From assembly GCF_050920415.1 (NCBI RefSeq), contig NZ_CP169309.1: DNA of 64,000 bases. One strand, 5' to 3'. Shown piece by piece: positions 3,617 to 41,904 of the stretch (its first letter is position 1; each line of letters starts with the position of its first letter). The stretch is from Escherichia coli. GTDB taxonomy: Bacteria; Pseudomonadota; Gammaproteobacteria; Enterobacterales; Enterobacteriaceae. The translations under genes were made by a program, and so were the position numbers. The notes under the pieces were generated by a model that was not told the origin of the DNA, ran no database searches, and saw nothing but the letters and a program-made list of their open reading frames with translations.

Positions 3617-3783
3617 TTGACCCAAATCGAAGTTACGAACAAGAAAGCGTAGAGCGGGCTTTAACGTGCGCTAACTGCGGTCAGAAGCTGCATGTGCTTG
3701 AAGTTCACGTGTGTGAGCACTGCTGCGCAGAACTGATGAGCGATCCGAATAGCTCAATGTACGAGGAAGAAGACGATGAATGA
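3613..3783 (+). CDS. ninF: NinF protein
   Basis: GTG start overlapping ninE stop; translation ..[46 protein letters not shown].. matches lambda NinF as recalled. Confidence 0.8.
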
Positions 3784-4788: not shown

Positions 4789-5146
4789 ACGAATATCAGT
4801 TTGTGCTTCCATACCCGCCGTCGCTGAACACCTACTGGCGAAGACGGGGAGTCAATACTACATCAGCGATAAAGGCCAGAAATACCGAAAAGACGTTCAG
4901 CAAATCATCCGCCAACTTAAGTTAGACATTTTCACCAAATCACGACTCCGCATCAAAGTCATCGCAGACGTTCCAGACTCCCGCCGCCGCGACCTCGATA
5001 ACATCCTGAAGGGTTTACTCGACTCCCTTATCCACGCCGGATTTGCGGAAGACGACGAGCAATTCGATGACATTCGCGTAATTCGTGGTGTGAAAGTACC
5101 AGGCGGACGGCTTGGAATAAAAATCACCGAACTGGAGAACGTATGA
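4785..5146 (+). pseudogene. rusA: Holliday-junction resolvase RusA, interrupted by an apparent 1-nt deletion near 4848-4851
   Basis: N-terminal RusA-like MNEYQFVLPYPPSLNTYWRRRG in frame 0 from 4785, RusA-like C-terminus ..DVPDSRRRDLDNILKGLLDSLIHAGF..GGRLGIKITELENV in frame -1 ending 5146; span 362 nt is one short of 121 codons. Confidence 0.7.
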
Positions 5147-5331
5147 ACGCCACAATTCAAACGATACCAGAGCTTCTTATCCAGACACGAGGCAATCAGA
5201 CCGAAGTGGCGAGGATGCTTTCCTGCGCAAGAGGAACAGTGCTCAAGTACAACCGAGACAGCAAAGGCGAGCGTCACGTAATAGTTAACGGCGTCCTGAT
5301 GGTCAAACAGGGCAAAAGGGGAAGGCCATGA
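5143..5331 (+). CDS. ninH: NinH protein
   Basis: ..TIPELLIQTRGNQTEVARMLSCARGTVLKY.. resembles lambda NinH as recalled; ATGA overlap with rusA stop. Confidence 0.85.
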   Translation: MNATIQTIPELLIQTRGNQTEVARMLSCARGTVLKYNRDSKGERHVIVNGVLMVKQGKRGRP

Positions 5332-5951
5332 GACTAGAAAGCGTAGCTAAATTTCATTCGCCAAAAAGCCCGATGATGAGTGACTCACCACGGGCCACGG
5401 CTTCTGACTCTCTTTCCGGTACTGATGTGATGGCTGCTATGGGGATGGCGCAATCACAAGCCGGATTCGGAATGGCTGCATTCTGTGGTAAGCACGAACT
5501 CAGCCAGAACGACAAACAAAAGGCTATCAACTATCTGATGCAATTTGCACACAAGGTATCGGGGAAATACCGGGGTGTGGCAAAGCTCGAAGGAAATACT
5601 AAGGCAAAGGTACTGCAAGTGCTCGCAACATTCGCTTATGCTGATTATTGCCGTAGTGCCGCGACGCCGGGCGCAAGATGCAGAGATTGCCACGGTACAG
5701 GCCGTGCGGTTGATATAGCCAAAACAGAGCAGTGGGGGAGAGTTGTTGAGAAAGAGTGCGGAAGATGCAAAGGTGTCGGCTATTCAAGAATGCCAGCAAG
5801 CGCTGCATATCGCGCTGTAACGATGCTAATCCCAAACCTTACCCAACCCACCTGGTCACGCACTGTTAAGCCGCTGTATGACGCTCTGGTGGTGCAATGC
5901 CACAAAGAAGAGTCAATCGCAGACAACATTTTGAATGCGGTCACACGTTAG
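5328..5951 (+). CDS. Q: Late-gene antiterminator Q
   Basis: 207 aa; translation matches lambda Q as recalled (MRLESVAKFHSPKSPMMSDSPRATASDS...). Confidence 0.9.
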   Translation: MRLESVAKFHSPKSPMMSDSPRATASDSLSGTDVMAAMGMAQSQAGFGMAAFCGKHELSQNDKQKAINYLMQFAHKVSGKYRGVAKLEGNTKAKVLQVLATFAYADYCRSAATPGARCRDCHGTGRAVDIAKTEQWGRVVEKECGRCKGVGYSRMPASAAYRAVTMLIPNLTQPTWSRTVKPLYDALVVQCHKEESIADNILNAVTR

Positions 5952-5993
5952 CAGCATGATTGCCACGGATGGCAACATATTAACGGCATGATA

Positions 5994-6022
5994 TTGACTT
6001 TTTGAATAAAGTTGGGTAAATT
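5994..6022 (+). promoter_or_regulatory. Late promoter pR' (-35 TTGACT, 17-bp spacer, -10 TAAATT) with adjacent qut region
   Basis: Sequence TTGACTTTTTGAATAAAGTTGGGTAAATT matches lambda pR' as recalled. Confidence 0.7.
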
Positions 6023-6056
6023 TGACTCAACGATGGATAAATGCACTCGTTAAATA

Positions 6057-6085
6057 AAGCCCTGAGTTAATAGCTGGGGCTTTTT
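6057..6085 (+). terminator. tR'-like terminator downstream of pR'
   Basis: Hairpin AGCCCT..GGGGCT followed by TTTTT. Confidence 0.55.
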
Positions 6086-6383
6086 GCGTTTTAAGCACGA
6101 CCTTTCTGAAAGCGCATCAAACCAAATACCAGACAGACCAAAATAATCACCTTATCCGCTGTGGCTACGGTGCGGTGTGCTTTGCATAAAAGAAAACCAG
6201 CTCAATGGCTGGCTTCGTGAAAGCGGGTGGCAAGAGGTTGCGCTAACAACCTCATGCCGTTTTGCCCGTGCATATCGGTCACGAACAAATCTGATTACTA
6301 AACACAGTAGCCTGGATTTGTTCTATCAGTAATCGACCTTATTCCTAATTAAATAGAGCAAATCCCCTTATTGGGGGTAAGAC

Positions 6384-6707
6384 ATGAAGATGCCAGAAAA
6401 ACATGACCTGTTAGCCGCCATTCTCGCGGCAAAGGAACAAGGCATCGGGGCAATCCTTGCGTTTGCAATGGCGTACCTTCGCGGCAGATATAATGGCGGT
6501 GCGTTTACAAAAACAGTAATCGACGCAACGATGTGCGCCATTATCGCCTGGTTCATTCGTGACCTTCTCGACTTCGCCGGACTAAGTAGCAATCTCGCTT
6601 ATATAACGAGCGTGTTCATCGGCTACATCGGTACTGACTCGATTGGTTCGCTTATCAAACGCTTCGCTGCTAAAAAAGCCGGAGTAGAAGATGGTGGAAA
6701 TCAATAA
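6384..6707 (+). CDS. S: Holin S (dual-start MKM)
   Basis: 107 aa; [34 protein letters not shown]... matches lambda S as recalled. Confidence 0.9.
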
Positions 6708-7167
6708 TCAACGTAAGGCGTTCCTCGATATGCTGGCGTGGTCAGAGGGAACTGATAACGGACGTCAGAAAACCAGAAATCATGGTTATGACGTCATTGT
6801 AGGCGGGGGGCTATTCACTGATTACTCCGATCACCCTCGCAAACTTGTCACGCTAAACCCCAAACTCAAATCAACAGCAGCCGGACGTTACCAGCTTCTT
6901 TCCCGTTGGTGGGATGCCTACCGCAAGCAGCTTGGCCTGAAAGACTTCTCTCCGAAAAGTCAGGACGCTGTGGCATTGCAGCAGATTAAGGAGCGTGGCG
7001 CTTTGCCGATGATTGATCGCGGTGATATTCGTCAGGCAATCGACCGTTGCAGCAATATCTGGGCTTCACTGCCGGGCGCTGGTTATGGCCAGTTCGAGCA
7101 TAAGGCTGACAGCCTGATTGCAAAATTCAAAGAAGCAGGCGGAACGGTTAGAGAGATTGAGGTATGA
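6691..7167 (+). CDS. R: Endolysin R (lytic transglycosylase)
   Basis: 158 aa; [39 protein letters not shown].. matches lambda R as recalled. Confidence 0.9.
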
Positions 7168-7601
7168 GCAGAGTCACCGCGATTATCTCCGCTCTGATTA
7201 TCTGCATCGTCGTCTGTCTGTCATGGGCGGTCAATCATTACCGTGATAACGCCATCGCCTACAAAGAACAGCGCGATAAGGCCGCATCCACAATCGCTGA
7301 CATGCAGAAGCGTCAACGTGATGTAGCAGAACTTGACGCCAGATACACAAAGGAGCTTGCTGATGCTAATGCGACTATCGAAAGTCTCCGTGCTGATGTT
7401 TCTGCTGGTCGTAAGCGCCTGCAAGTCGCCGCCACCTGTGCAAAGTCAACGACCGGAGCCAACAGCATGGGCGATGGAGAAAGCCCAAGACTTACAGCAG
7501 ATGCTGAACTCAATTATTACCGTCTCAGAAGTGGAATCGACAAGATAACCGCGCAGGTTAACTACCTGCAGGAATACATCAGGACGCAATGCCTGAAATG
7601 A
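7164..7601 (+). CDS. Rz: Spanin inner-membrane subunit Rz
   Basis: 145 aa with N-terminal TM segment, directly after R. Confidence 0.85.
7363..7548 (+). CDS. Rz1: Spanin outer-membrane lipoprotein Rz1, embedded in +1 frame of Rz
   Basis: Embedded ORF with signal peptide and lipobox-like LLVVSAC followed by Pro-rich segment. Confidence 0.65.
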
Positions 7602-7635
7602 TGGGCGATGAAAACCAAAAAACAGGAGCAATACA

Positions 7636-7910
7636 TGACTAAGCTTTATCACCGCATCTCAACTTTTCTCTCTGGGTGCTGGGCGTTTATCACGTCTATT
7701 TCGTTCGCCATCTTTAGTTTCGGTAGCACAGCATGCTCGCTTAGTCGGGGTATGTGGCGTGCTATTTCAGCACTAGCGCCGAAATTTTTACCTGAAAAGG
7801 CTGTTTGGCGAATTGTAGAGCGAATGTGTAGTGAGAGCGTTCGCGAGAAGATTAACGTATTTGGGCGTCATCCTCGAAATACAGGCGCATTGTGCAGTTC
7901 GTTACTGTAG
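7636..7910 (+). CDS. Hypothetical small membrane protein (91 aa)
   Basis: ATG 7 nt downstream of AGGAG; hydrophobic segment FLSGCWAFITSISFAIFSF; no recognised family. Confidence 0.3.
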
Positions 7911-8139
7911 TCATTACAAAGCCCATCAATGGGTGGGCTTGATAATGAAACCGGAATTTATTCTGGGCCACCAGTTAACGGCAGTACAGCGAAACAACCC
8001 AAGCCAGTAAGTGGGGAAATAACACTGGCAGCCACTGAAAGATGAACCTCCTGCCTTATGGCAAAAAAGATTCTTTGTGGTGGCGGACTGATGGAAAGAC
8101 ATCCACTGAATCGATGATAAACAAGTGGAATAGGTTGCG

Positions 8140-8310
8140 ATGGTTTCCGTGAACAAAGATCCGAAGGAAGGCGTTGAATACATCACTGGTGCTGATGGTG
8201 TGAAAAGGCCAATGGCTTATTACAAAGCTGCTGAAGAGAGGGCAAGAATGGAAAATCCCCCTAAATGCGGATCATTTTTCGACATGCTGGACCTTCAATG
8301 GAAGTTGTGA
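8140..8310 (+). CDS. Hypothetical small protein (56 aa)
   Basis: ORF MVSVNKDPKEGVEYITGADGVKRPMAYYKAAEERARMENPPKCGSFFDMLDLQWKL followed 10 nt later by a hairpin+T-run terminator; weak SD. Confidence 0.3.
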   Translation: MVSVNKDPKEGVEYITGADGVKRPMAYYKAAEERARMENPPKCGSFFDMLDLQWKL

Positions 8311-8319
8311 ACAACTAAC

Positions 8320-8344
8320 AGGTCGCTCAGGCGGCCTTTTTTAT
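8320..8344 (+). terminator. Rho-independent terminator
   Basis: AGGTCGC-TCAG-GCGGCCT stem (one G-U) followed by TTTTTTA. Confidence 0.5.
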
Positions 8345-8449
8345 TGCCATCACAAAAGCCATTCCCTACATAGTGGCTTTGATAATGGCTTATACCCTAC
8401 ACGGGATAACTTAACTGATATCCCTTTTAACGGATAAACGGAGCCAACA

Positions 8450-8692
8450 ATGGCAGAGATTATTCCCATGACTGAAGAACAGAAGTTCAAGTTAGAAATT
8501 TACCGACTGCTATCTAAGAACAATTCAGCGGCAGAGGAAGCTTTTGCATTCATTGGTGCTGACCAACTGAAACTGGAATTGTTCAAGTTGCACTACAACG
8601 ATGGCGGTGCAAATCCAGACTTCACATCTCGCACTATCGAAGCGGTGCGTAAATCGAAGGAAGCGTTAGACCTGTTCACTACCGGAGCATAA
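8450..8692 (+). CDS. Conserved hypothetical phage protein upstream of small terminase (80 aa)
   Basis: Good SD GGAG; 80 aa; position and length like the small ORF preceding gene 3 in P22-like phages (from memory). Confidence 0.55.
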   Translation: MAEIIPMTEEQKFKLEIYRLLSKNNSAAEEAFAFIGADQLKLELFKLHYNDGGANPDFTSRTIEAVRKSKEALDLFTTGA

Positions 8693-8771
8693 ACATGGCA
8701 ACTCAAGGTTTCGACAACCCATCCAAATTCCGCGATGAATGGGATAAGCAAGCAGAAGGGAAATAATCAAT

Positions 8772-9260
8772 ATGGCAGCACCAAAGGGCAACCGATTTTG
8801 GGAGGCCCGCAGTAGTCATGGGCGAAATCCTAAATTCGAATCGCCTGAGGCGCTGTGGGCTGCTTGTTGTGAATACTTCGAGTGGGTGGAAGCTAACCCG
8901 CTATGGGAGATGAAGGCGTTCTCGTATCAGGGTGAAGTAATACAAGAGCCTATCGCCAAGATGCGAGCGATGACCATTACCGGCCTCACTCTGTTCATTG
9001 ATGTGACGCTTGAAACATGGCGCACATATCGCCTGCGAGAAGATTTATCTGAAGTCGTTACGCGAGCAGAACAGGTCATCTACGACCAGAAATTCTCTGG
9101 CGCAGCCGCTGACCTTCTCAACGCTAACATCATCGCCCGTGATTTGGGCCTCAAAGAGCAGTCGCAAGTTGAAGACGTGACACCTGATAAGGGAGATCGC
9201 GATAAGCGGCGCTCTCGTATCAAGGAGCTATTCAACCGTGGAACTGGACGCGATTCTTGA
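8772..9260 (+). CDS. Terminase small subunit (P22 gp3-like)
   Basis: 162 aa; matches P22 gp3 length and position as recalled. Confidence 0.85.
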
Positions 9261-10737
9261 TAACCTGAGCGACGAAGAGCAAATCGAGTTGCTCGAGCTA
9301 CTCGAAGAAGAAGAGAACTACCGGAACACACACCTGCTATATGAATTTACGCCATACAGCAAGCAGCGTGAGTTCATCGACGCCGGGCATGACTATCCAG
9401 AGCGATGTTTTATGGCTGGTAACCAGCTTGGTAAGTCATTTACTGGTGCTGCTGAAGTCGCGTTTCACCTTACCGGTCGTTATCCGGGCACAAAAGGCTA
9501 TCCTGCTGATGGTAAATATGGCGGTGAGTGGAAAGGTAAGCGTTTCTATGAGCCTGTTGTCTTCTGGATTGGTGGAGAGACAAACGAGACTGTAACCAAA
9601 ACGACTCAACGCATCCTGTGCGGTCGTATCGAAGAGAATGGTGAGCCAGGCTACGGTTCCATACCGAAAGAAGACATCATTAGCTGGAAGAAGTCTCCTT
9701 TCTTTCCGAACCTTGTTGATCATCTTCTGGTTAAGCATCACACGGCTGATGGCGTTGAAGATGGCATTTCAATCTGCTACTTCAAACCATACTCGCAAGG
9801 CCGTGCTCGCTGGCAGGGTGACACAATCCACGGCGTGTGGTTTGACGAAGAGCCACCATACAGCATTTATGGCGAAGGTCTTACCCGTACCAACAAATAC
9901 GGGCAATTCTCAATTCTGACGTTTACCCCGCTGATGGGGATGTCTGACGTTGTTACCAAGTTCCTGAAGAATCCCAGCAAGTCTCAGAAAGTGGTCAACA
10001 TGACCATCTATGACGCTGAGCACTACACCGACGAGCAGAAAGAGCAAATCATCGCATCCTATCCTGAGCATGAGAGAGAGGCGCGTGCTCGCGGTATTCC
10101 TACGATGGGTAGTGGTCGAATCTTCCAGATACCGGAAGAGACGATTAAGTGTCAGCCGTTCGAGTGTCCTGATCACTTCTACGTAATTGGCGGTATGGAT
10201 TTCGGATGGGATCACCCGCAGGCGCAGGTTCAGCTTTGGTGGGATAAGGACGCAGACATAATCTACCTTTCACGCGTTTGGAAGGCGAAAGAAAAGACAG
10301 CCGTTCAGGCGTGGGGAGCTGTTAAACCATGGGCGCATAAAGTGCCAACCGCATGGCCTCATGACGGAAACCAGCACGAGAAGGGCGGCGGTGAGCAGCT
10401 CAAAGGGCAGTATGCGGACGCTGGATTTATGATGTTGCAGGAGCATGCGACATGGCCTGATGGCGGTAACGCTGTTGAGCCTGGCATCACTGAATTGCGA
10501 GACATGATGCTCGACGGTCGCTTCAAAGTATTCAACACCTGTGAGCCATTCTTTGAGGAGTTCCGCCTCTATCACCGTGATGAAAACGGGAAAATCGTCA
10601 AGCTTAACGACGACGTGCTATCCGCCGTTCGCTATGCATACATGATGCGCCGCTTCGCAAAAATGATGCGCGACATCAAAAAGCCAAAAGAGAAAAAGAT
10701 ACCAGCCCCAATCAGGCCCATCGCACGGAGAACTTAA
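9238..10737 (+). CDS. Terminase large subunit (P22 gp2-like)
   Basis: 499 aa; position between small terminase and portal. Confidence 0.85.
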
Positions 10738-12903
10738 ATGGCCGACGAAAACAGACTCAATTCCATTCTGTGTAAGTTTGACGCAGACTGGATGGCGAGC
10801 GATGAAGCCAGAACCGAGGCGACAAATGACCTGTATTTTAGCCGAGTGTCGCAATGGGATGACTGGCTATCAAACTACACCACCCTGCAATATCGCGGAC
10901 AATTCGATGTTGTTCGCCCGGTGGTCAGGAAGCTGGTCGCAGAGATGCGCCGGAACCCTATCGATGTTCTCTTCAGACCAAAAGACGGCGCTAATCCTGA
11001 TGCTGCCGATGTGCTGATGGGGATGTATCGTACTGATATGCGCCATAATACGGCAAAAATTGCCGTTAACGTTGGCGTTCGTGAGCAGATAGAGTCAGGC
11101 GTTGGTGCATGGCGTCTGGTCACGCAGTACGAAGACAACGATCCAACAAGCAACAATCAGGTAATCCGACGCCTGCCAATCCATGAAGCCTGCTCACACG
11201 TCATATGGGACGCCAACAGCAAGCAGATGGATAAGAGCGACGCTAAGCACTGCACGGTGATTAACGCCTTGTCGCGCAATGGCTGGAAAGAGTTCGCAGA
11301 GGATTACGGTATTGATCCGGACACGCTGCCATCTTTCCAGAATCCAAACGATACATGGCTGTTTCCGTGGGTATCGAATGATGTCGTCTACGTCGCTGAG
11401 TATTACGAGGTCGAAGAGAAGAAAGAGAAAGTCTTCATCTACCGCGACCCGCTGACAGGTGAGCCGGTCAGCTATTACCAGCAGGATATCAAAGACGTCA
11501 TCGACGACCTGGCTAATCGTGGATTCATTAAGGTAGCAGAGCGCAAGGTGAAGCGTCGGCGTGTGTATAAGTCGATCGTCACCTGCACGCAGATACTGAA
11601 AGACCGCGAGAAGATAGCCGGAGAGCATATTCCAATCGTTCCAGTATATGGCGAATGGTCATTCGCTGGTGACAAGGAGTGCTACGAAGGAGTGGTAAGG
11701 CTGACGAAAGACGGTCAACGCCTTCGTAACATGATCATGTCATTCAACGCCGATATTGTTGCTCGTTCACCGAAGAAGAAACCGACCTTCTTCCCTGAGC
11801 AAATCGAAGGCTACGAATACATGTACGGTGGAAATGATGACTATCCGTACTATCTGCAGAACAGGACCGATGAAAACGGCAACGACCTGCCGATTGGTCC
11901 AATCTCCTACATGGAAAACCCTGAAGTGCCGCAAGCCAACGCTTACATGCTTGAGGCTGCCACCAACGCAGTGAAAGAGGTGGCTAGTCTTGGTGTGGAT
12001 GCGCAGGCAGCAAACTCTCAGGTCGCTTTCGATACCGTCAATCAACTGAACATGCGGGCAGACCTTGAGACATACGTGTTTCAGGATAACCTTGCTACCG
12101 CAATGCGACGTGATGGCGAGATTTATGCTTCAATGGTCAATGATATTTATGACGTTCCTCGTCATGTAACGCTGACACTTGAAGATGGTAGCGAGAAAGA
12201 CGTTCAACTCTACGCGCAAGTTGTAGATTACCAGTCCGGTAATGTGGTCACACTCAACGACATTCGCGGTCGCTATGAGTGCTATACCGACGTTGGACCA
12301 TCCTTCCAGAGTATGAAGGAACAGAACCGCGCAGAGATTCAGGAGTTACTCACCAAGGTTCCGCAAGGTACTCCAGAGTTCCAGATGCTGATGTTGCAAT
12401 ACTTCACGCTGCTTGACGGTAAAGGCGTCGAGATGATGCGAGAGTACGCGAACAAGCAACTGGTGATGATGTGGCTGAAGAAACCAGAAACACCTGAAGA
12501 GATGGAGATGGTGCAACAGGCGCAACAGCAGCCGCAGCAGCCATCAGCAGAGCAAATTCAGGCGCAGGGTATCCTTCTGCAAGGTCAGGCTGAATTGATC
12601 AAGGCAGAGAACCAACAGGCGCAGATTCAGGTTGAAGCCGCCAAGGTTGAAGCCCAAAACCAACTCAACGCCGCGAAGATTGCAGAAATCTTCAACAATA
12701 TGGACCTCGACAAGCAGGCAGAACTGCGTGAGTACCTCAAGCTCGTAGGTCAATTCCAGCAACAGCGCAGCAAAGATGCTCGTGCTAACGCTGAGCTGCT
12801 TCTTAAAGATGCAGACCAGACTCATTCACAACGCATGGATTTCGCGAATCTTATGCGTCAAGTTCAAATCCCCTCCGGCGGAGTAGCCGAGACACCTCAA
12901 TAA
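10738..12903 (+). CDS. Portal protein (P22 gp1-like)
   Basis: 721 aa; translation closely matches recalled P22 portal (..[30 protein letters not shown]..). Confidence 0.95.
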
Positions 12904-24537: not shown

Positions 24538-24716
24538 ATAAAGAAGATGGCTTTAAGTGCTCCTTCTGCTGAAAGCCTCAGCATGAATGTGCAATGTTGA
24601 TTCGCGCTAAAGCAGAGATATTTATCTGTAATGGTTGTGTATCTCTTTGCGTTGAAGCGATGGGGAAAGAGTTAAATTCTAGAAAAACAATGTTAGATGT
24701 GAGCATAAAACAGTGA
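24534..24716 (+). pseudogene. ClpX-type C4 zinc-finger small protein with in-frame TGA at 24570-24572
   Basis: MNKEDGFKCSFC-TGA-KPQHECAMLIRAKAEIFICNGCVSLCVEAMGKE.. parallels ClpX N-terminal zinc finger (CSFCGK...ICDECV..LC); TGA sits where ClpX has Gly. Confidence 0.5.
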
Positions 24717-24778
24717 AGCCCCAACTGCGGTAACAGTCAGGGCTTCGGTATCAACAAAACTTACGAGGTATTATTGAT

Positions 24779-29206: not shown

Positions 29207-30364
29207 TCACTCCACCTTTTCATCAATCCAATCCGCCCACCACTGCATCATTTCTCTGCGCTTATCGAGATACTGAGCATGGTTGTAAATTCCGCGCACA
29301 GATCCGCCGTTGGCATGTGCCAGTTGCACTTCAATAGCATCAGCAGGCCATTCGTGCTCGTTCATAATCGTGCTGAATTCATGCCTGAATCCGTGACCGC
29401 TTTCCAGACCTTCATAGCCGATTTGTTTGATCACAAGCAGTACCGCGTTCTCGCAGATTGGCTTCTTCTTATCGTTGCGCCCGGCAAAAACAAACTCTGA
29501 TACTGGTTTGGTGATTGAGCTTAGCGTAGTGAGAAGTTCAACCACCTGGTCCGACATCGGGACAACATGAATCTTGCGTCCCTTCATCACACTGGCGTCG
29601 ATAGTGATAATCCTGTTTTCAAAATCGACGTTCTTCCATTGCATGGAACGAAGCTCTTTCGTTCTTAGGGCTGTGTAGCGTAAAACTTTGGTCGCAATGA
29701 GCGATACGATACTTCCTGAAAATGTTGCCAGTGCTTTGTTGAATGCAGGGATCTGGTCTGCAGGAAGAAACGGGAAGTTCTTCTTGCGGTATCCCTTCAT
29801 GGCGTCAGCAAGGTCAGGTGCCGGGTTATATTTAGCCCTTCCGGTGACAATAGCGTAACGGAAAACCTCGCCGCATCTTCTGCGTGCTTTGTTGGCTCGC
29901 TCCATTGCACCGCGATCTTCAAATCTGCGGATTACTTCCAGAAGTTGCATCGGCTCAATATCCTGAATTTCAAGGCTGCCGATGATAGGTAAAATGTCGT
30001 CATCAAACATTTTGGCAAGTTCAGTTGCATAGCCTACTGACCAGACTTGCTTCTTGTGCTCGTACCATTCCTTGTAAATCGCACTAAAGGAATTGTTGTT
30101 AGACGAAGCCTTTTTCGCCTTTACCGGATCGATACCAACCGAGATGTCTTTCCTCGCAGTCCATGCTTTATCCCTTGCCTCCTGCAAAGTCATAAGCGGA
30201 TATTTTCCGACGGTCAGGATTTTCTCCTTACCGTCAATCTTGTAGCGAAGCTGCCATACCTTTTTCCCTGACACAGGGACATAAAGGTACAGGCCATTAC
30301 CATCGAGAAGGCGGTATGGTTTTTCTTTCGGCTTTGCTGCTTCAATCTGCTTAACGGTGAGCAT
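29207..30364 (-). CDS. intS: Tyrosine integrase (IntS-like)
   Basis: MLTVKQIEAAKPKEKPYRLLDGNGLYLYVP.. matches recalled K-12 IntS; start taken at Met13 of the listed ORF. Confidence 0.9.
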   Translation of the reverse strand: MLTVKQIEAAKPKEKPYRLLDGNGLYLYVPVSGKKVWQLRYKIDGKEKILTVGKYPLMTLQEARDKAWTARKDISVGIDPVKAKKASSNNNSFSAIYKEWYEHKKQVWSVGYATELAKMFDDDILPIIGSLEIQDIEPMQLLEVIRRFEDRGAMERANKARRRCGEVFRYAIVTGRAKYNPAPDLADAMKGYRKKNFPFLPADQIPAFNKALATFSGSIVSLIATKVLRYTALRTKELRSMQWKNVDFENRIITIDASVMKGRKIHVVPMSDQVVELLTTLSSITKPVSEFVFAGRNDKKKPICENAVLLVIKQIGYEGLESGHGFRHEFSTIMNEHEWPADAIEVQLAHANGGSVRGIYNHAQYLDKRREMMQWWADWIDEKVE

Positions 30365-30525
30365 GGGTAAAAATCCGGTGGGTAAAATTATTTTATCCAC
30401 TTTTTACCCGTCATGGTGTGCGGCTGTCAACGATCTGACGCGAACCATGACGAACTGTGAATCTACGGAAGGCTTGATATTCAGGGGATTTTGCGGACTG
30501 GTACGGATGGGAGCGAACTGATAAA

Positions 30526-30600
30526 TGGTGTCCCCTGCAGGAATCGAACCTGCAATTAGCCCTTAGGAGGGGCTCGTTATATCCATTTAACTAAGAGGAC
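30526..30600 (-). tRNA. argW: tRNA-Arg (argW), prophage integration site
   Basis: Reverse complement reads GTCCTCTTAGTTAAATGGATATAACGAGCCCCTCCTAAGGGCTAATTGCAGGTTCGATTCCTGCAGGGGACACCA. Confidence 0.95.
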
Positions 30601-36581: not shown

Positions 36582-37892
36582 ATGGGTCAGGTTTTACCGC
36601 TGATTACCCGCCAGGGCGATCGTATCGCCATTGTTAGCGGCTTACGTACGCCTTTTGCCCGTCAGGCGACGGCTTTTCATGGCATTCCCGCTGTTGATTT
36701 GGGGAAGATGGTCGTAGGCGAATTGCTGGCACGCAGCGAGATCCCCGCCGAAGTGATTGAACAACTGGTTTTTGGTCAGGTCGTACAAATGCCTGAAGCC
36801 CCCAACATTGCGCGTGAAATTGTTCTTGGCACCGGAATGAATGTCCATACCGATGCTTACAGCGTCAGCCGCGCTTGTGCTACCAGTTTTCAGGCGGTTG
36901 CAAACGTCGCCGAAAGCCTGATGGCGGGAACTATTCGTGCGGGGATTGCCGGCGGGGCAGATTCCTCTTCCGTATTGCCCATTGGTGTTAGTAAAAAACT
37001 GGCGCGCGTGTTGGTGGATGTCAACAAAGCCCGCACGATGAGCCAACGACTGAAACTTTTTTCTCGCCTGCGTTTGCGTGACTTAATGCCCGTACCGCCT
37101 GCGGTGGCGGAGTATTCCACAGGCTTGCGGATGGGCGACACCGCCGAACAAATGGCGAAAACCTACGGTATTACTCGCGAACAGCAAGATGCGCTGGCGC
37201 ACCGTTCACATCAGCGTGCTGCTCAGGCATGGTCAGAAGATAAGCTCAAAGAAGAGGTAATGACCGCCTACGTTCCTCCTTATAAACAACCGCTCGCGGA
37301 AGACAACAATATTCGCGGCAATTCCACGCTTGCTGATTACGCAAAGCTGCGTCCGGCGTTTGATCGCAAACACGGGACGGTAACGGCAGCAAACAGTACG
37401 CCGCTGACCGATGGCGCAGCGGCGGTGATCCTGATGACTGAATCACGGGCGAAAGAATTGGGCCTGGTGCCGCTGGGATATCTGCGTAGCTACGCATTTA
37501 CCGCTATTGATGTCTGGCAGGACATGTTGCTCGGCCCGGCCTGGTCAACGCCGCTGGCGCTGGAACGCGCTGGATTGACGATGGCCGATCTGACATTGAT
37601 TGACATGCACGAAGCCTTTGCCGCCCAGACGCTGGCTAATATTCAGTTGCTTGGCAGCGAACGTTTTGCGCGCGACGTACTGGGGCGTTCCCATGCTACT
37701 GGTGAAGTGGACGATAGTAAGTTTAACGTGCTTGGTGGTTCCATTGCGTACGGGCATCCCTTCGCAGCGACTGGAGCGCGGATGATTACCCAGACATTGC
37801 ATGAACTTCGCCGTCGCGGCGGTGGATTTGGCTTAGTGACCGCTTGTGCTGCTGGTGGGCTTGGTGCGGCAATGGTTCTGGAGGCGGAATAA
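36582..37892 (+). CDS. fadI: 3-ketoacyl-CoA thiolase (anaerobic beta-oxidation)
   Basis: 436 aa thiolase; synteny with fadJ. Confidence 0.95.
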
Positions 37893-40036
37893 TGGAAATG
37901 GCATCAGCTTTTACTCTTAATGTTCGTCTGGACAACATTGCAGTCATCACCATCGACGTTCCCGGTGAGAAAATGAATACCCTGAAGGCGGAGTTTGCCT
38001 CGCAGGTGCGCACCATTATTAAGCAACTTCGCGAAAACAAAGAATTACGTGGAGTTGTATTTATCTCAGCGAAACCGGACAACTTTATCGCCGGAGCAGA
38101 CATCAACATGATCGGCAACTGCAAAACGGCGCAAGAAGCGGAAGAGCTGGCGCGGCAGGGGCAACAGTTAATGGCGGAGATTCATGCTCTGCCTGTTCCG
38201 GTTATCGCGGCTATTCATGGCGCTTGCCTGGGGGGCGGGCTGGAACTGGCACTGGCGTGTCATGGCCGCGTCTGCAGTGACGATCCTAAAACGGTGCTTG
38301 GCTTGCCGGAAGTTCAGCTTGGATTATTGCCAGGTTCAGGCGGTACTCAGCGTTTGCCGCGCCTCATTGGCGTCAGCACCGCGCTGGAGATGATCCTCAC
38401 AGGCAAGCAACTACGGGCAAAGCAGGCTTTCAAACTGGGGCTGGTGGATGATGTCGTTCCGCACTCTATTTTACTGGAATCCGCCGTTGAGTTGGCAAAG
38501 CAGGATCGACTATCTTCCCGCCCGCTACCTGTACGCGAGCGTATTCTGGCGGGGCCGCTAGGTCGTGCACTGTTGTTCAAAATGGTCGGCAAGAAAACAG
38601 AGCAGAAAACTCAGGGGAACTATCCGGCGACAAAACGCATTCTTGAAGTCATCGAAACCGGATTAGCGCAAGGCACCAGTAGCGGCTATGACGCGGAAGC
38701 CCGTGCCTTTGGTGAACTGGCGATGACACCACAATCGCAGGCTCTGCGTAGTATCTTTTTTGCCAGTACCGAAGTGAAGAAAGATCCGGGCAGTGATGCT
38801 CCGCCCGCGCCGTTAAATAGCGTAGGAATTTTAGGTGGTGGCTTGATGGGGGGCGGTATTGCTTATGTTACTGCTTGTAAAGCGGGCTTGCCGGTCAGAA
38901 TTAAAGATATCAACCCGCAGGGCATAAATCATGCATTGAAGTACAGCTGGGATCAGTTGGAGGGCAAAGTGCGCCGCCGACATCTCAAAGCCAGCGAACG
39001 TGACAAACAGCTGGCATTAATTTCGGGAACAACGGATTATCGCGGCTTTGCCCATCGTGACTTAATTATTGAAGCGGTGTTTGAAAATCTCGAATTAAAA
39101 CAAAAGATGGTGGCGGAAGTAGAGGAAAATTGCGCCACTCATACCATCTTCGCTTCGAATACGTCATCTTTACCAATTAGCGATATTGCCGCTCACGCCT
39201 CGCGGCCGGAGCAGGTTATCGGTCTTCATTTCTTCAGCCCGGTAGAAAAAATGCCGCTGGTGGAGATCATTCCCCATACGGGGACATCGGCGCAAACCAT
39301 CGCTACAACGGTAAAACTGGCGAAAAAACAGGGAAAAACGCCAATTGTTGTGCGTGACAAAGCCGGGTTTTATGTCAATCGCATTTTAGCGCCTTACATC
39401 AATGAAGCTATCCGCATGTTGACTGAAGGTGAACGGGTTGAGCATATCGATGCCGCACTGGTCAAGTTTGGTTTTCCGGTGGGACCAATCCAACTTTTGG
39501 ATGAGGTAGGAATCGACACCGGGACTAAAATTATTCCTGTACTGGAAGCCGCTTATGGAGAACGTTTTAGCGCGCCTGCAAATGTTGTTTCTTCAATTTT
39601 GAATGACGATCGCAAAGGCAGAAAAAATGGTCGGGGTTTCTATCTTTATGGGCCGAAAGGGCGTAAAAGCAAAAAACAGGTCGATCCTGCTATTTATCCG
39701 CTGATTGGCGCGCAAGGGCAGGGGCGACTCTCCGCACCGCAGGTTGCTGAACGGTGTGTGATGATGATGCTGAATGAAGCTGTACGTTGTCTGGACGAGC
39801 AGGTTATCCGTAGCGTGCGTGACGGGGATATCGGCGCGGTATTTGGAATTGGGTTTCCGCCGTTTCTCGGTGGCCCATTTCGCTATATCGACGCTCTCGG
39901 TGCGGCAGAAGTGGTTGCAATAATGCAACGTCTGACCGCGCGGTACGGTTCTCGTTTTACCCCTTGCGATCGTTTAGTTGAGATGAGCGAACGTGGGGAA
40001 AGTTTTTGGAAAACAACTGCAACTGACCTGCAATAA
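37892..40036 (+). CDS. fadJ: Enoyl-CoA hydratase/3-hydroxyacyl-CoA dehydrogenase
   Basis: Start [11 protein letters not shown] at 37892 overlapping fadI stop; 714 aa. Confidence 0.95.
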
Positions 40037-40724: not shown

Positions 40725-41271
40725 AAGCTCATATGCCCGGTTGCGTACGCGTATACCGGGCAAATTTTTTCTGTCCTAATTGTGATCATATTTTACATAT
40801 CACGAATTTTATTATCTTTCTTGTTATTGAAACTGGTAATAACACAGTGGAATAATGGTTTTGTATCTTGAATATATATTAATTAATTTAATTGAGATTT
40901 AATCTTATCAATAAATAATTGCAAAATCATTATAAATTATCTCAGTGGTTTTTATATTCAATGCATTCACATTGATTATGATGTCTTTTCTTTTTTTTGA
41001 TAATGCGCATGTTTTTTTATTGAAAAGCGAGTGAGATATTCTGGTTGTGTATTGATTAATTAAATCTACATAAAGTCTTTAAGTATTGCTACATTGATTA
41101 TTTTTAAGGATAAGACCAACATAACGACACACCAGAGAATATCTGTTTACATTCTATGATTATTTGGGACATATGATGTTCAATGGTTAACTAAAAGCGT
41201 CAGACATAATATATACAATAATATTATGTCAGTTGCTTGTATTATACATTTTAATGATTTAAGGACAAATA

Positions 41272-41832
41272 ATGAGTAAGTTTGCCAAAACAGCCATTGC
41301 TGCCGCAATGGTGATGGGCGCAGTTGTCTCCGCGTCAGCATTTGCTGCAGGCAACAACGGTACTGCACGTTTCTACGGCACCATTGAAGACTCCCCGTGC
41401 TCTATCGTTCCAGACGATCACAAACTGGAAGTGGATTTAGGTAACATCGGTGCCGAAGTACTGAAAAACAACGGGACTACCACGCCGAAAGATTTTCAGA
41501 TTCGTTTGCAGGACTGCGTATTTGAAACCCAAACGAACATGGAAACGACGTTCACCGGTAACGTTTCTACGGGAAACGAGAATTACTACACCATTTTTAA
41601 TACCGATACAGGTGCTGCGTTTAACAATGTAAGCCTGGCGATTGGTGATAAGCAAGGTACTTCCTATAAAAGCGGTGCTGGCATTAAACAGGCGATCGTA
41701 AATGACTCAGCAACCAATAAAGGCAAACCTAAACAGACTCTGAACTTCAAAGCCTGGTTAGTCGGTGCGACGGGTACGCCTGACCTGGGTGGTTTTGAAG
41801 CGAATACCACTTTCCAGATTACCTATCTCTAA
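41272..41832 (+). CDS. yfcV: Fimbrial major subunit (Yfc chaperone-usher fimbriae)
   Basis: 186 aa with signal peptide and fimbrial C-terminal beta strand; AT-rich upstream region. Confidence 0.8.
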   Translation: MSKFAKTAIAAAMVMGAVVSASAFAAGNNGTARFYGTIEDSPCSIVPDDHKLEVDLGNIGAEVLKNNGTTTPKDFQIRLQDCVFETQTNMETTFTGNVSTGNENYYTIFNTDTGAAFNNVSLAIGDKQGTSYKSGAGIKQAIVNDSATNKGKPKQTLNFKAWLVGATGTPDLGGFEANTTFQITYL

Positions 41833-41904
41833 GGTAATTCACCCCCATAGCATCTCGCTATGGGGGATTTTGGCGAGTTTTTGGACTTATTATAATAATC
41901 ACGG

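Follow-up and report, generated by a model that had tools for sequence, protein, structure and literature searches.

The window analysed here, a 64,000-nucleotide stretch of the Escherichia coli contig NZ_CP169309.1, carries at positions 5328-8772 what is very probably the late-control and lysis cassette of a seemingly intact prophage of the P22-like (Lederbergvirus) kind, expected to work as its counterparts in phages lambda and P22 do. The original prediction, made from the sequence alone, had described this region as a lambda-type Q/pR'/S-R-Rz module joined to P22-type packaging genes, with a late leader far shorter than that of lambda and with junctions that delimit where the modules were exchanged. 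The region is indeed mosaic, but alignment to lambda and P22 places at least eight breakpoints between Q and the middle of gene 2 and no single junction at the small terminase gene; only the holin gene S and the endolysin gene R are truly lambda-type. As judged from sequence comparison, the allele is the common coliphage form found in HK140, HK544, HK97, HK022 and Sf101, itself an old patchwork, and no recent lambda-by-P22 exchange in this prophage lies behind it.

Q-dependent late control, lambda-type S and R genes in P22-like phages, and the mosaicism of lambdoid late operons are all well described. The use of lambda as the sole reference made the common P22/HK97-type short leader seem unusual, and made an old patchwork of many pieces seem one junction. 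The leads that remain are the short leader as a possible small RNA (sRNA) and possible conserved structured RNAs between the terminator tR' and the holin gene.

Gene content of the late region

Genes in the window were read from the list of open reading frames (ORFs) and the raw sequence, and families were assigned by Pfam and PHROGs scans. Lengths are given in amino acids (aa), nucleotides (nt) or base pairs (bp). The features from Q to gene 2 are as follows.

5328-5951, plus strand: Q, late-gene antiterminator, 207 aa (PF03589, E=1e-57; PDB 7UBM and 4MO1)
5362-5628, minus strand: paQ/a23 antisense unit inside Q (promoter 5595-5628, terminator 5362-5395)
5994-6034, plus strand: predicted late promoter pR' with the qut site (promoter scan; identity to P22 Plate/qut)
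6029-6092, plus strand: predicted short late leader RNA, ~59 nt, to tR' (homology to P22 t late and to the Emek terminator; folds)
6093-6222, plus strand: leader segment without lambda counterpart, candidate three-way-junction RNA (folds, covariation)
6223-6269, plus strand: conserved 18-bp hairpin upstream of S (inner stem 6229-6258, GUUUU at 6259-6263)
6363-6707, plus strand: sdi stem-loop (6363-6376), then the holin/antiholin gene S (PF05106, E=2e-30)
6691-7167, plus strand: R, lambda-type endolysin, a transglycosylase (phrog_90; PDB 1AM7, E=2e-104; Glu19)
7164-7601, plus strand: Rz, i-spanin (PF03245)
7363-7548, plus strand: Rz1, o-spanin, embedded in Rz in the +1 frame, lipobox LVVSAC (PF06085, E=7e-20)
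7608-8771, plus strand: variable lysis-packaging spacer with small ORFs (family scans, alignments)
8772-9260, plus strand: gene 3, small terminase, with pac inside (PF16677; PDB 3P9A)
9238-10737, plus strand: gene 2, large terminase (PF03237, PF17289)

The portal gene begins at 10738, directly after gene 2. The gap between Q and S is 432 bp, and the spacer between Rz and gene 3 is 1170 bp. Structure matches for Q, R and the gene 3 product (gp3) all have E <1e-100 (7UBM, 4MO1, 1AM7, 3P9A), that of Q to 7UBM reaching E=2e-138. R gave no match in the Pfam scan and is placed by PHROGs in an endolysin family; its catalytic Glu19 sits in ...AWSEGT....

The Q family, the qut site and a -10-like pause element together correspond to the lambda/P22 'type 1' Q system. 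The S reading frame (6384-6707) encodes a protein opening MKMPEK, with a Met-Lys-Met dual start that would give S107 from 6384 and S105 from 6390; upstream of it lies CCCC-TTATT-GGGG, as in lambda, in a stem-loop that we take to be the sdi structure of lambda S. The PF05106 domain, the dual start and this stem-loop make S a dual-start class I holin of the lambda S kind. Rz1 lies wholly within Rz, and the two families, the +1 frame and the lipobox are those of an embedded two-component spanin. The arrangement of P22-type headful packaging, in which a small terminase gene of the gp3 family includes the pac site and the gp2 large terminase comes next, is present, and the 22-bp P22 pac sequence has an exact copy within gene 3 at 9039-9060. 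Inside Q, the promoter and terminator of the paQ/a23 unit are identical to features of the P22 record. The promoter contains a CII/C1 box TTGCGAGCACTTGC (TTGC-N6-TTGC) at 5615-5628 on the minus strand, and the terminator-like site 5362-5395 was also picked up by a terminator scan.

Mosaic relationship to lambda and P22

The annotated genomes of lambda and P22 were aligned to the window, and affinities were read from runs of informative sites and from identity in 100-nt windows. The following succession of segments was found along the plus strand.

Q to 5985: slight lean towards lambda
6001-6115: promoter core, leader and tR', P22-type (informative sites 7/7)
6116-6190: coliphage-specific core
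6213 to ~7245: lambda-type
~7250-7602: most of Rz and the entire Rz1, P22-type
7603-8435: patches common to HK140, Gally and P22
8766 to ~10130: gene 3 and ~60% of gene 2, identical to P22 at 92-100%
beyond ~10130: identical to P22 at ~75%

The Q gene was predicted to be lambda-type, and it is 96.6% identical to lambda at the nt level and 99.5% at the aa level; the values for P22 gene 23 and its product gp23 are 94.6% and 97.6%. The two reference genes, lambda Q and P22 gene 23, have 93.8% nt identity to each other, so that Q is not assignable to either type and does not discriminate between them. S and R, on the other hand, are as lambda-like as predicted. S is 99.1% identical in aa sequence to lambda S and 89% to the P22 holin, the preS and S sequence is 98.8% identical to lambda vs 81% to P22 at the nt level, and identity to lambda is also 98.8% over the 170 nt that precede S, where the sdi stem-loop and the 18-bp hairpin lie. 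R has 98.1% aa identity to the lambda protein vs 18% to P22 gp19, an unrelated endolysin.

Rz and Rz1, also predicted to resemble lambda, do so only at the level of the family. Rz is 88% identical in aa sequence to P22 gp15 vs 56% to lambda Rz, with only its first ~80 nt lambda-like, and Rz1 is 87% identical to P22 vs 37% to lambda. The best match of Rz turns to P22 at ~7245-7285, upstream of the Rz1 start, so that the periplasmic part of Rz and the whole of Rz1 are both P22-type, which would fit the need of the two proteins to bind each other.

In the spacer, P22 similarity is found at 7965-8103 (3' end of the rha region) and 8436-8690 (orf80), both upstream of gene 3; P22 itself has rha between its lysis and packaging genes. 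gp3 is identical to P22 gp3 at 162/162 aa. The gene 2 product is 92% identical overall to its P22 homologue, but the gene contains a further breakpoint near 10130, the identity in 100-nt windows being 92-100% up to ~10100 and 67-83% after it. The portal and later virion genes are ~75-78% identical to P22; these genes and the part of gene 2 past the breakpoint are ~96% identical to coliphage IME10.

Recombination of a Q/pR'/S-R-Rz module from lambda with packaging genes of the P22 type, with the leader shortened and with the junctions near the small terminase marking the exchange, now seems very improbable, and by these alignments is already largely refuted. It would account for S and R proteins 98-99% identical to lambda next to a gp3 identical to that of P22, whose own endolysin is unrelated to R. 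It does not account for a leader and tR' identical to those of P22, where no truncated lambda leader is seen, for Rz and Rz1 of P22 type, for a Q common to both phages, or for the P22-like homology upstream of gene 3 and the breakpoint inside gene 2. The original prediction was to fail if the module proved equally distant from lambda and P22; the distances are equal for Q and reversed, with P22 the nearer, for the leader and Rz/Rz1. The lysis module thus does not stand as a lambda-type unit.

Distribution of the arrangement

The age of the internal switches is indicated by other phages. Phage HK140 is collinear with positions 5200-8103 at 96.7% identity, and Sf101 with positions 5318-7602 at 97%. 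Since the whole block 5200-8103 is collinear with HK140, the lambda/P22 switches within it are old and widely inherited, and were not made in this prophage; its junctions do not mark the module exchange that had been read from them.

The intergenic stretch between Q and S (5940-6400) is covered to at least 80% in 82 phage records. The full-coverage records listed number 34, at 95-99% identity, and include HK544 (98.9%), HK140, HK106, HK022, HK97, mEp phages, Sf101 and Gally. At least 80% of the same stretch is present in 272/5,426 complete E. coli genomes. When ~80 viral contigs were typed by leader, holin, endolysin, spanin and small terminase, 20 combinations were found, and the commonest (32 contigs) was that of the window, with short leader, lambda S, lambda R and P22-type Rz. 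The region is ordinary and already documented, with near-identical copies in dozens of sequenced phages.

HK140 shares with the window the short leader, the coliphage-type core, S, R, the P22-type Rz/Rz1 and the ORF at 7638-7910, but its similarity stops at 8103, save for a short patch at 8372-8509, and HK140, HK544, HK97, HK022 and the mEp series are without P22-type packaging and virion genes. The combination of Q, lambda-type S and R and P22-type Rz with P22-like virion genes occurs in IME10, E212, APC_JM3.2, Sf101, Gally and N7. Published P22-like coliphages (IME10, E212, Sf101, N7, Gally) thus pair such lysis genes with P22-like virion genes, and the nearest whole-virion relatives are the published coliphages IME10, APC_JM3.2 and Dewey, at ~96%. 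Sf101 has the same short leader, at 97% identity, whereas IME10 and E212 have a long leader of the lambda type (Q-to-S gaps of 810 and 713 nt), and their gp3 is 82% identical to P22 gp3, whereas the window carries the P22 allele. Lambda itself differs from the window in its 194-nt leader, its Rz and Rz1 and its cos-type packaging genes. The shuffling of lysis cassettes among P22-like phages was reported with the genome of phage epsilon34 (PMC2629481).

Predicted late promoter, leader and terminator

The promoter scan identified pR' with a -35 element TTGACT (5994-5999) that begins 43 nt past the Q stop codon, a 17-bp spacer and a -10 element TAAATT (6017-6022). The Q-binding region would lie between them, at 6000-6020. 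A -35-like TTGACT (6022-6027) and the AACGAT at +1 to +6 (6029-6034) are identical in lambda and P22, and are presumably the elements that induce pausing, as at lambda pR'. The -35 and -10 elements of pR' and their spacing are those of lambda, as predicted; the promoter core, however, is of the P22 type, with the P22 base at 7/7 informative lambda/P22 sites in 6001-6052. Over 5998-6068, a stretch that runs from the promoter core through qut and along the leader as far as the loop of the hairpin, the window is 100% identical to P22, and the late promoter annotated in P22 matches pR' at 100%. There are six substitutions between lambda and the window from -28 to +19. The qut string equals that of P22 and differs at two positions from the lambda version given in the record of mEp234.

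The P22 record annotates the late promoter (37852-37880), qut, an RNA 5' end (37887) and a 't late or tR'' terminator (37917-37945), and thus the same short-leader architecture. Carried through the alignment, this annotation places the start of the window transcript at A6029. The putative tR' hairpin lies at 6056-6083 and its U tracts are 6081-6085 and 6089-6092, so that hairpin and U tract together span 6056-6092; its stem and U tract match P22 except for the loop and one missing C. The GC stem begins at +31 from A6029, in agreement with the predicted distance of about 35 nt. A terminator annotated in phage Emek also matches, which indicates the short-leader arrangement in that phage too.

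The predicted leader of ~59 nt is far shorter than the 194 nt of lambda, as had been noticed, but it is not unusual. The lambda and P22 antiterminators Q and gp23 are interchangeable in function (PMC8022706), and a statement in PMC7547250, citing Roberts et al. 1976, has phages 21, phi80, 82 and P22 making short antitermination-regulated late RNAs. When the shared sequence from -10 to +8 was scanned in viral contigs, at least 120 loci were found, or 124 sequences with the references added. Among those listed, ~100/124 pR'-bearing sequences have the P22-type transcript start and 19 the lambda type. The 194-nt leader of lambda is the minority form in that sample, where the short one is ahead by ~5 to 1. 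The predicted short leader of the window is the normal P22/HK97 arrangement and not a shortened lambda leader.

A segment foreign to lambda does exist here, as the original prediction proposed for about 6090-6200, but it is longer and includes the terminator. Lambda homology ends at 6051 and returns at 6213, leaving 161 bp (6052-6212) in place of 405 bp of lambda (44610-45014). Within it, 6052-6115 and 6190-6212 are P22-like, and the 75-nt core between them (6116-6190) is only ~50% identical to P22, yet 95-99% identical to many coliphages.

The ~59-nt RNA might itself act in trans, as an Hfq-dependent sRNA on host mRNAs comparable with StxS of Shiga-toxin phages, though we regard this as improbable. 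In its predicted fold, an unpaired A/U-rich stretch (UUAAAUAAA) is followed by a terminator hairpin and a U tail, and its first 38 nt are near-invariant in 96 contigs of E. coli and Salmonella phages. StxS is likewise a short tR'-ended pR' transcript made in lysogeny, and shows that by-product RNAs of pR' can be functional; pR' is expected to be constitutive by the authors of that study, who describe lambda pR' in this way and point out that the short pR' RNAs of other phages can regulate (PMC7547250). The invariance of the leader is, however, no higher than that of its flanks (95-99% identity overall), and pausing, Q loading and termination already constrain much of the RNA. No Rfam family matches it, and it is not known to bind Hfq, to act on a target or to cause a phenotype. 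StxS has an unrelated sequence, belongs with another Q type and is processed from a ~250-nt precursor to 74 nt.

A probably artefactual single-base deletion in tR'

The one private feature of the window lies in tR'. The descending arm of the hairpin reads GCTCGGGGC in all relatives and GCTGGGGC in the window, one C being lost between 6075 and 6076. The window hairpin has a folding energy of -12.5 kcal/mol and is marginally above chance (z=-1.7, 13/200 shuffles), while the family consensus, one base longer, reaches -19.1 kcal/mol (z=-4.5, 0/200 shuffles). The terminator scan of the window returned no call for the hairpin at 6056-6092. The exact variant had zero matches in 96 viral contigs and 5,426 complete E. 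coli genomes; 324 of these genomes match the tR' stretch, none with the deletion.

One viral contig, L087, has 99.89% identity to the window along 10.9 kb. Past position 3720 there is 1 substitution between them as against 4 single-base indels, each of which abuts a G run. The window has deletions at 4845, 6075 and 7602, and at 7747 it is L087 that lacks a G. The deletion at 4845 cuts rusA to 46 aa, compared with 120 aa in L087; that at 7602 is intergenic, and the base is retained in four relatives. Because this ratio of indels to substitutions and the G-run context resemble base-calling or assembly errors, the tR' deletion is probably such an artefact.

A genuine deletion is a possibility to which we give distinctly less weight. 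It would leave a weak terminator and leaky late transcription, with the hairpin at 6229-6263, ending in GUUUU, or other terminators as the backstop. The variant would then be a rare one, seen in none of the viral contigs or matching E. coli genomes, with a cost to the hairpin of 6.6 kcal/mol, and the long ORFs are intact over 64 kb, so that the assembly is not grossly error-prone. Set against this, the excess of G-run indels over substitutions, three of the four being deletions in the window and one of them truncating rusA, is an error-like pattern, and four G-C pairs beside the U tract survive the deletion.

Proposed mode of action

The analysis shows directly which genes are present, how the signals agree in sequence with annotated P22 features, where the breakpoints lie and how frequent the arrangements are. 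The following scheme is drawn from the homology to lambda and P22, from which we infer promoter activity, pausing, termination and antitermination. The pR' promoter would be constitutively active, and RNA polymerase would pause at ~+16/+17 with sigma-70 holding AACGAT. In the lysogen, transcription would stop at tR' and yield the RNA of ~59 nt. Upon induction, Q would bind between the -35 and -10 elements and travel with the polymerase past tR' and later terminators. During the establishment of lysogeny, the CII-dependent paQ/a23 antisense RNA would damp Q. The products made after antitermination would be the S107/S105 antiholin/holin pair, the R transglycosylase, the Rz/Rz1 spanin and the P22-type headful packaging proteins, with packaging expected to begin at the pac site inside gene 3.

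No observation contradicts the assignment to late control and lysis, although three points weigh against this account of its working. The transcript start and 3' end are carried over from the P22 annotation, which was itself made partly by similarity to lambda. As the missing C takes the tR' hairpin from -19.1 to -12.5 kcal/mol, the efficiency of termination in this particular prophage is uncertain. The rusA frameshift upstream could reflect sequence errors or an early stage of prophage decay.

Candidate structured RNAs between tR' and S

For the segment 6093-6222, separate folding of the window and P22 sequences predicts one shared architecture, a three-way junction closed by the helix CACGA/UCGUG, with a long helix of ~16 bp and, at 6197-6212, a small hairpin. 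When eight sequences representing both types were aligned, 98% of cells were paired. Five pairs show two-sided changes between the coliphage and Salmonella types, as against 0-1 in slid controls, in a test where the structure was derived from the counted alignment itself, only two clades were compared and the z-scores were -1.3 and -2.6. The many G.U pairs point to the plus strand. This evidence does no more than suggest a structured RNA, which may have an undescribed role in processing or stabilising the late mRNA. The segment has no annotation in the P22, HK140, Sf101, Emek, IME10 and E212 records examined, and no Rfam family matched 5900-6450 or the corresponding lambda region, even with E values of up to 5 allowed.

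Downstream of it, the hairpin at 6223-6269 has 18 bp and a folding energy of -25.8 kcal/mol (z=-3.5). Among 22 variants, including lambda and P22, 92% of cells are paired and 5 pairs covary. The hairpin lies ~120 nt upstream of S and is conserved in lambda (L001 ~45027-45074), P22 and HK97-type phages. Relatives carry the 6-nt loop in either orientation (CGCTAA/TTAGCG, CGCAAA/TTTGCG), and one stem position is mismatched in 13/22 variants, the window included (A6233/A6254). One viral contig (L041) has a gene inserted precisely at the loop.

Lambda (L001 ~44793-44875) and ~20 viral contigs (among them L025, L027, L038 and L060) have a stem of ~20 bp right after tR', an element that the window does not have. 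This stem, CACAACAGGUAAGAGCAUU...AGUGCUCUUxCCGUUGUG, surrounds apical sequences of at least six kinds that are unrelated to one another; fully compensated variants occur in L025 and L060, and no Rfam family matches it. Lambda late RNA reportedly contains RNase III processing sites, and the stems described here, the post-tR' stem of lambda included, may be such sites. A literature search for tandem late terminators in lambda found nothing in the collection of papers covered.

Two coding candidates in the same interval were considered and rejected. A hydrophobic peptide of 19 aa on the minus strand (MIILVCLVFGLMRFQKGRA, ~6152-6093) was considered as a type I toxin, but its frame is broken in the aligned P22-type segment, and the G.U-rich covariation favours a plus-strand RNA instead. 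The plus-strand ORF of 51 aa at 6177-6332 (hypothetical in HK140, phrog_22751) is unlikely to be a gene: lambda is without the start codon, P22 has frame-breaking indels, and the ORF overlaps the covarying RNA hairpin. The scan also reported a terminator-like hairpin on the minus strand (6216-6193), at which a leftward transcript might end; its bases also make up an arm of the three-way junction predicted on the plus strand for the window and for P22 alike.

Spacer and prophage context

Every piece of the lysis-packaging spacer has a match of at least 94% in HK140, N7, Gally or P22-like phages. The following features were recognised in it.

7608/7638-7910, plus strand: ORF of 91-100 aa, phrog_34701, common to HK140 and N7
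7965-8103, plus strand: remnant of the 3' end of P22 rha (alignment)
8140-8310, plus strand: ORF of 56 aa, phrog_5425, common to Gally
8320-8337, plus strand: terminator-like site after the phrog_5425 ORF (terminator scan)
8450-8692, plus strand: orf80/DUF2560 (family scan)

The spacer ORFs at 7608-7910 and 8140-8347 occupy the position where other lambdoid phages carry morons.

The prophage is integrated at argW beside its integrase gene, the site also used by phage Kapi1, and the long ORFs of prophage and host are intact. The features that mark its end, with the Rfam matches in the prophage and in the host part of the window, are as follows.

24712-24777, minus strand: sar antisense RNA of the immI region, in the prophage (Rfam)
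29207-30400, minus strand: integrase, marking the prophage end
30529-30600, minus strand: tRNA-Arg gene argW, marking the prophage end
53116-53194, plus strand: naRNA4 (REP-type) element, in the host part (Rfam)

The host flank (29216-53462) is ~94-96% identical, over stretches of 11 kb, to the best-matching E. coli chromosome fetched. The yfc fimbrial operon within it (41258-45341) is ~79% identical to that chromosome, and a short junction region is 99% identical. These values suggest that the host part of the window comes from a divergent or mosaic E. coli lineage.

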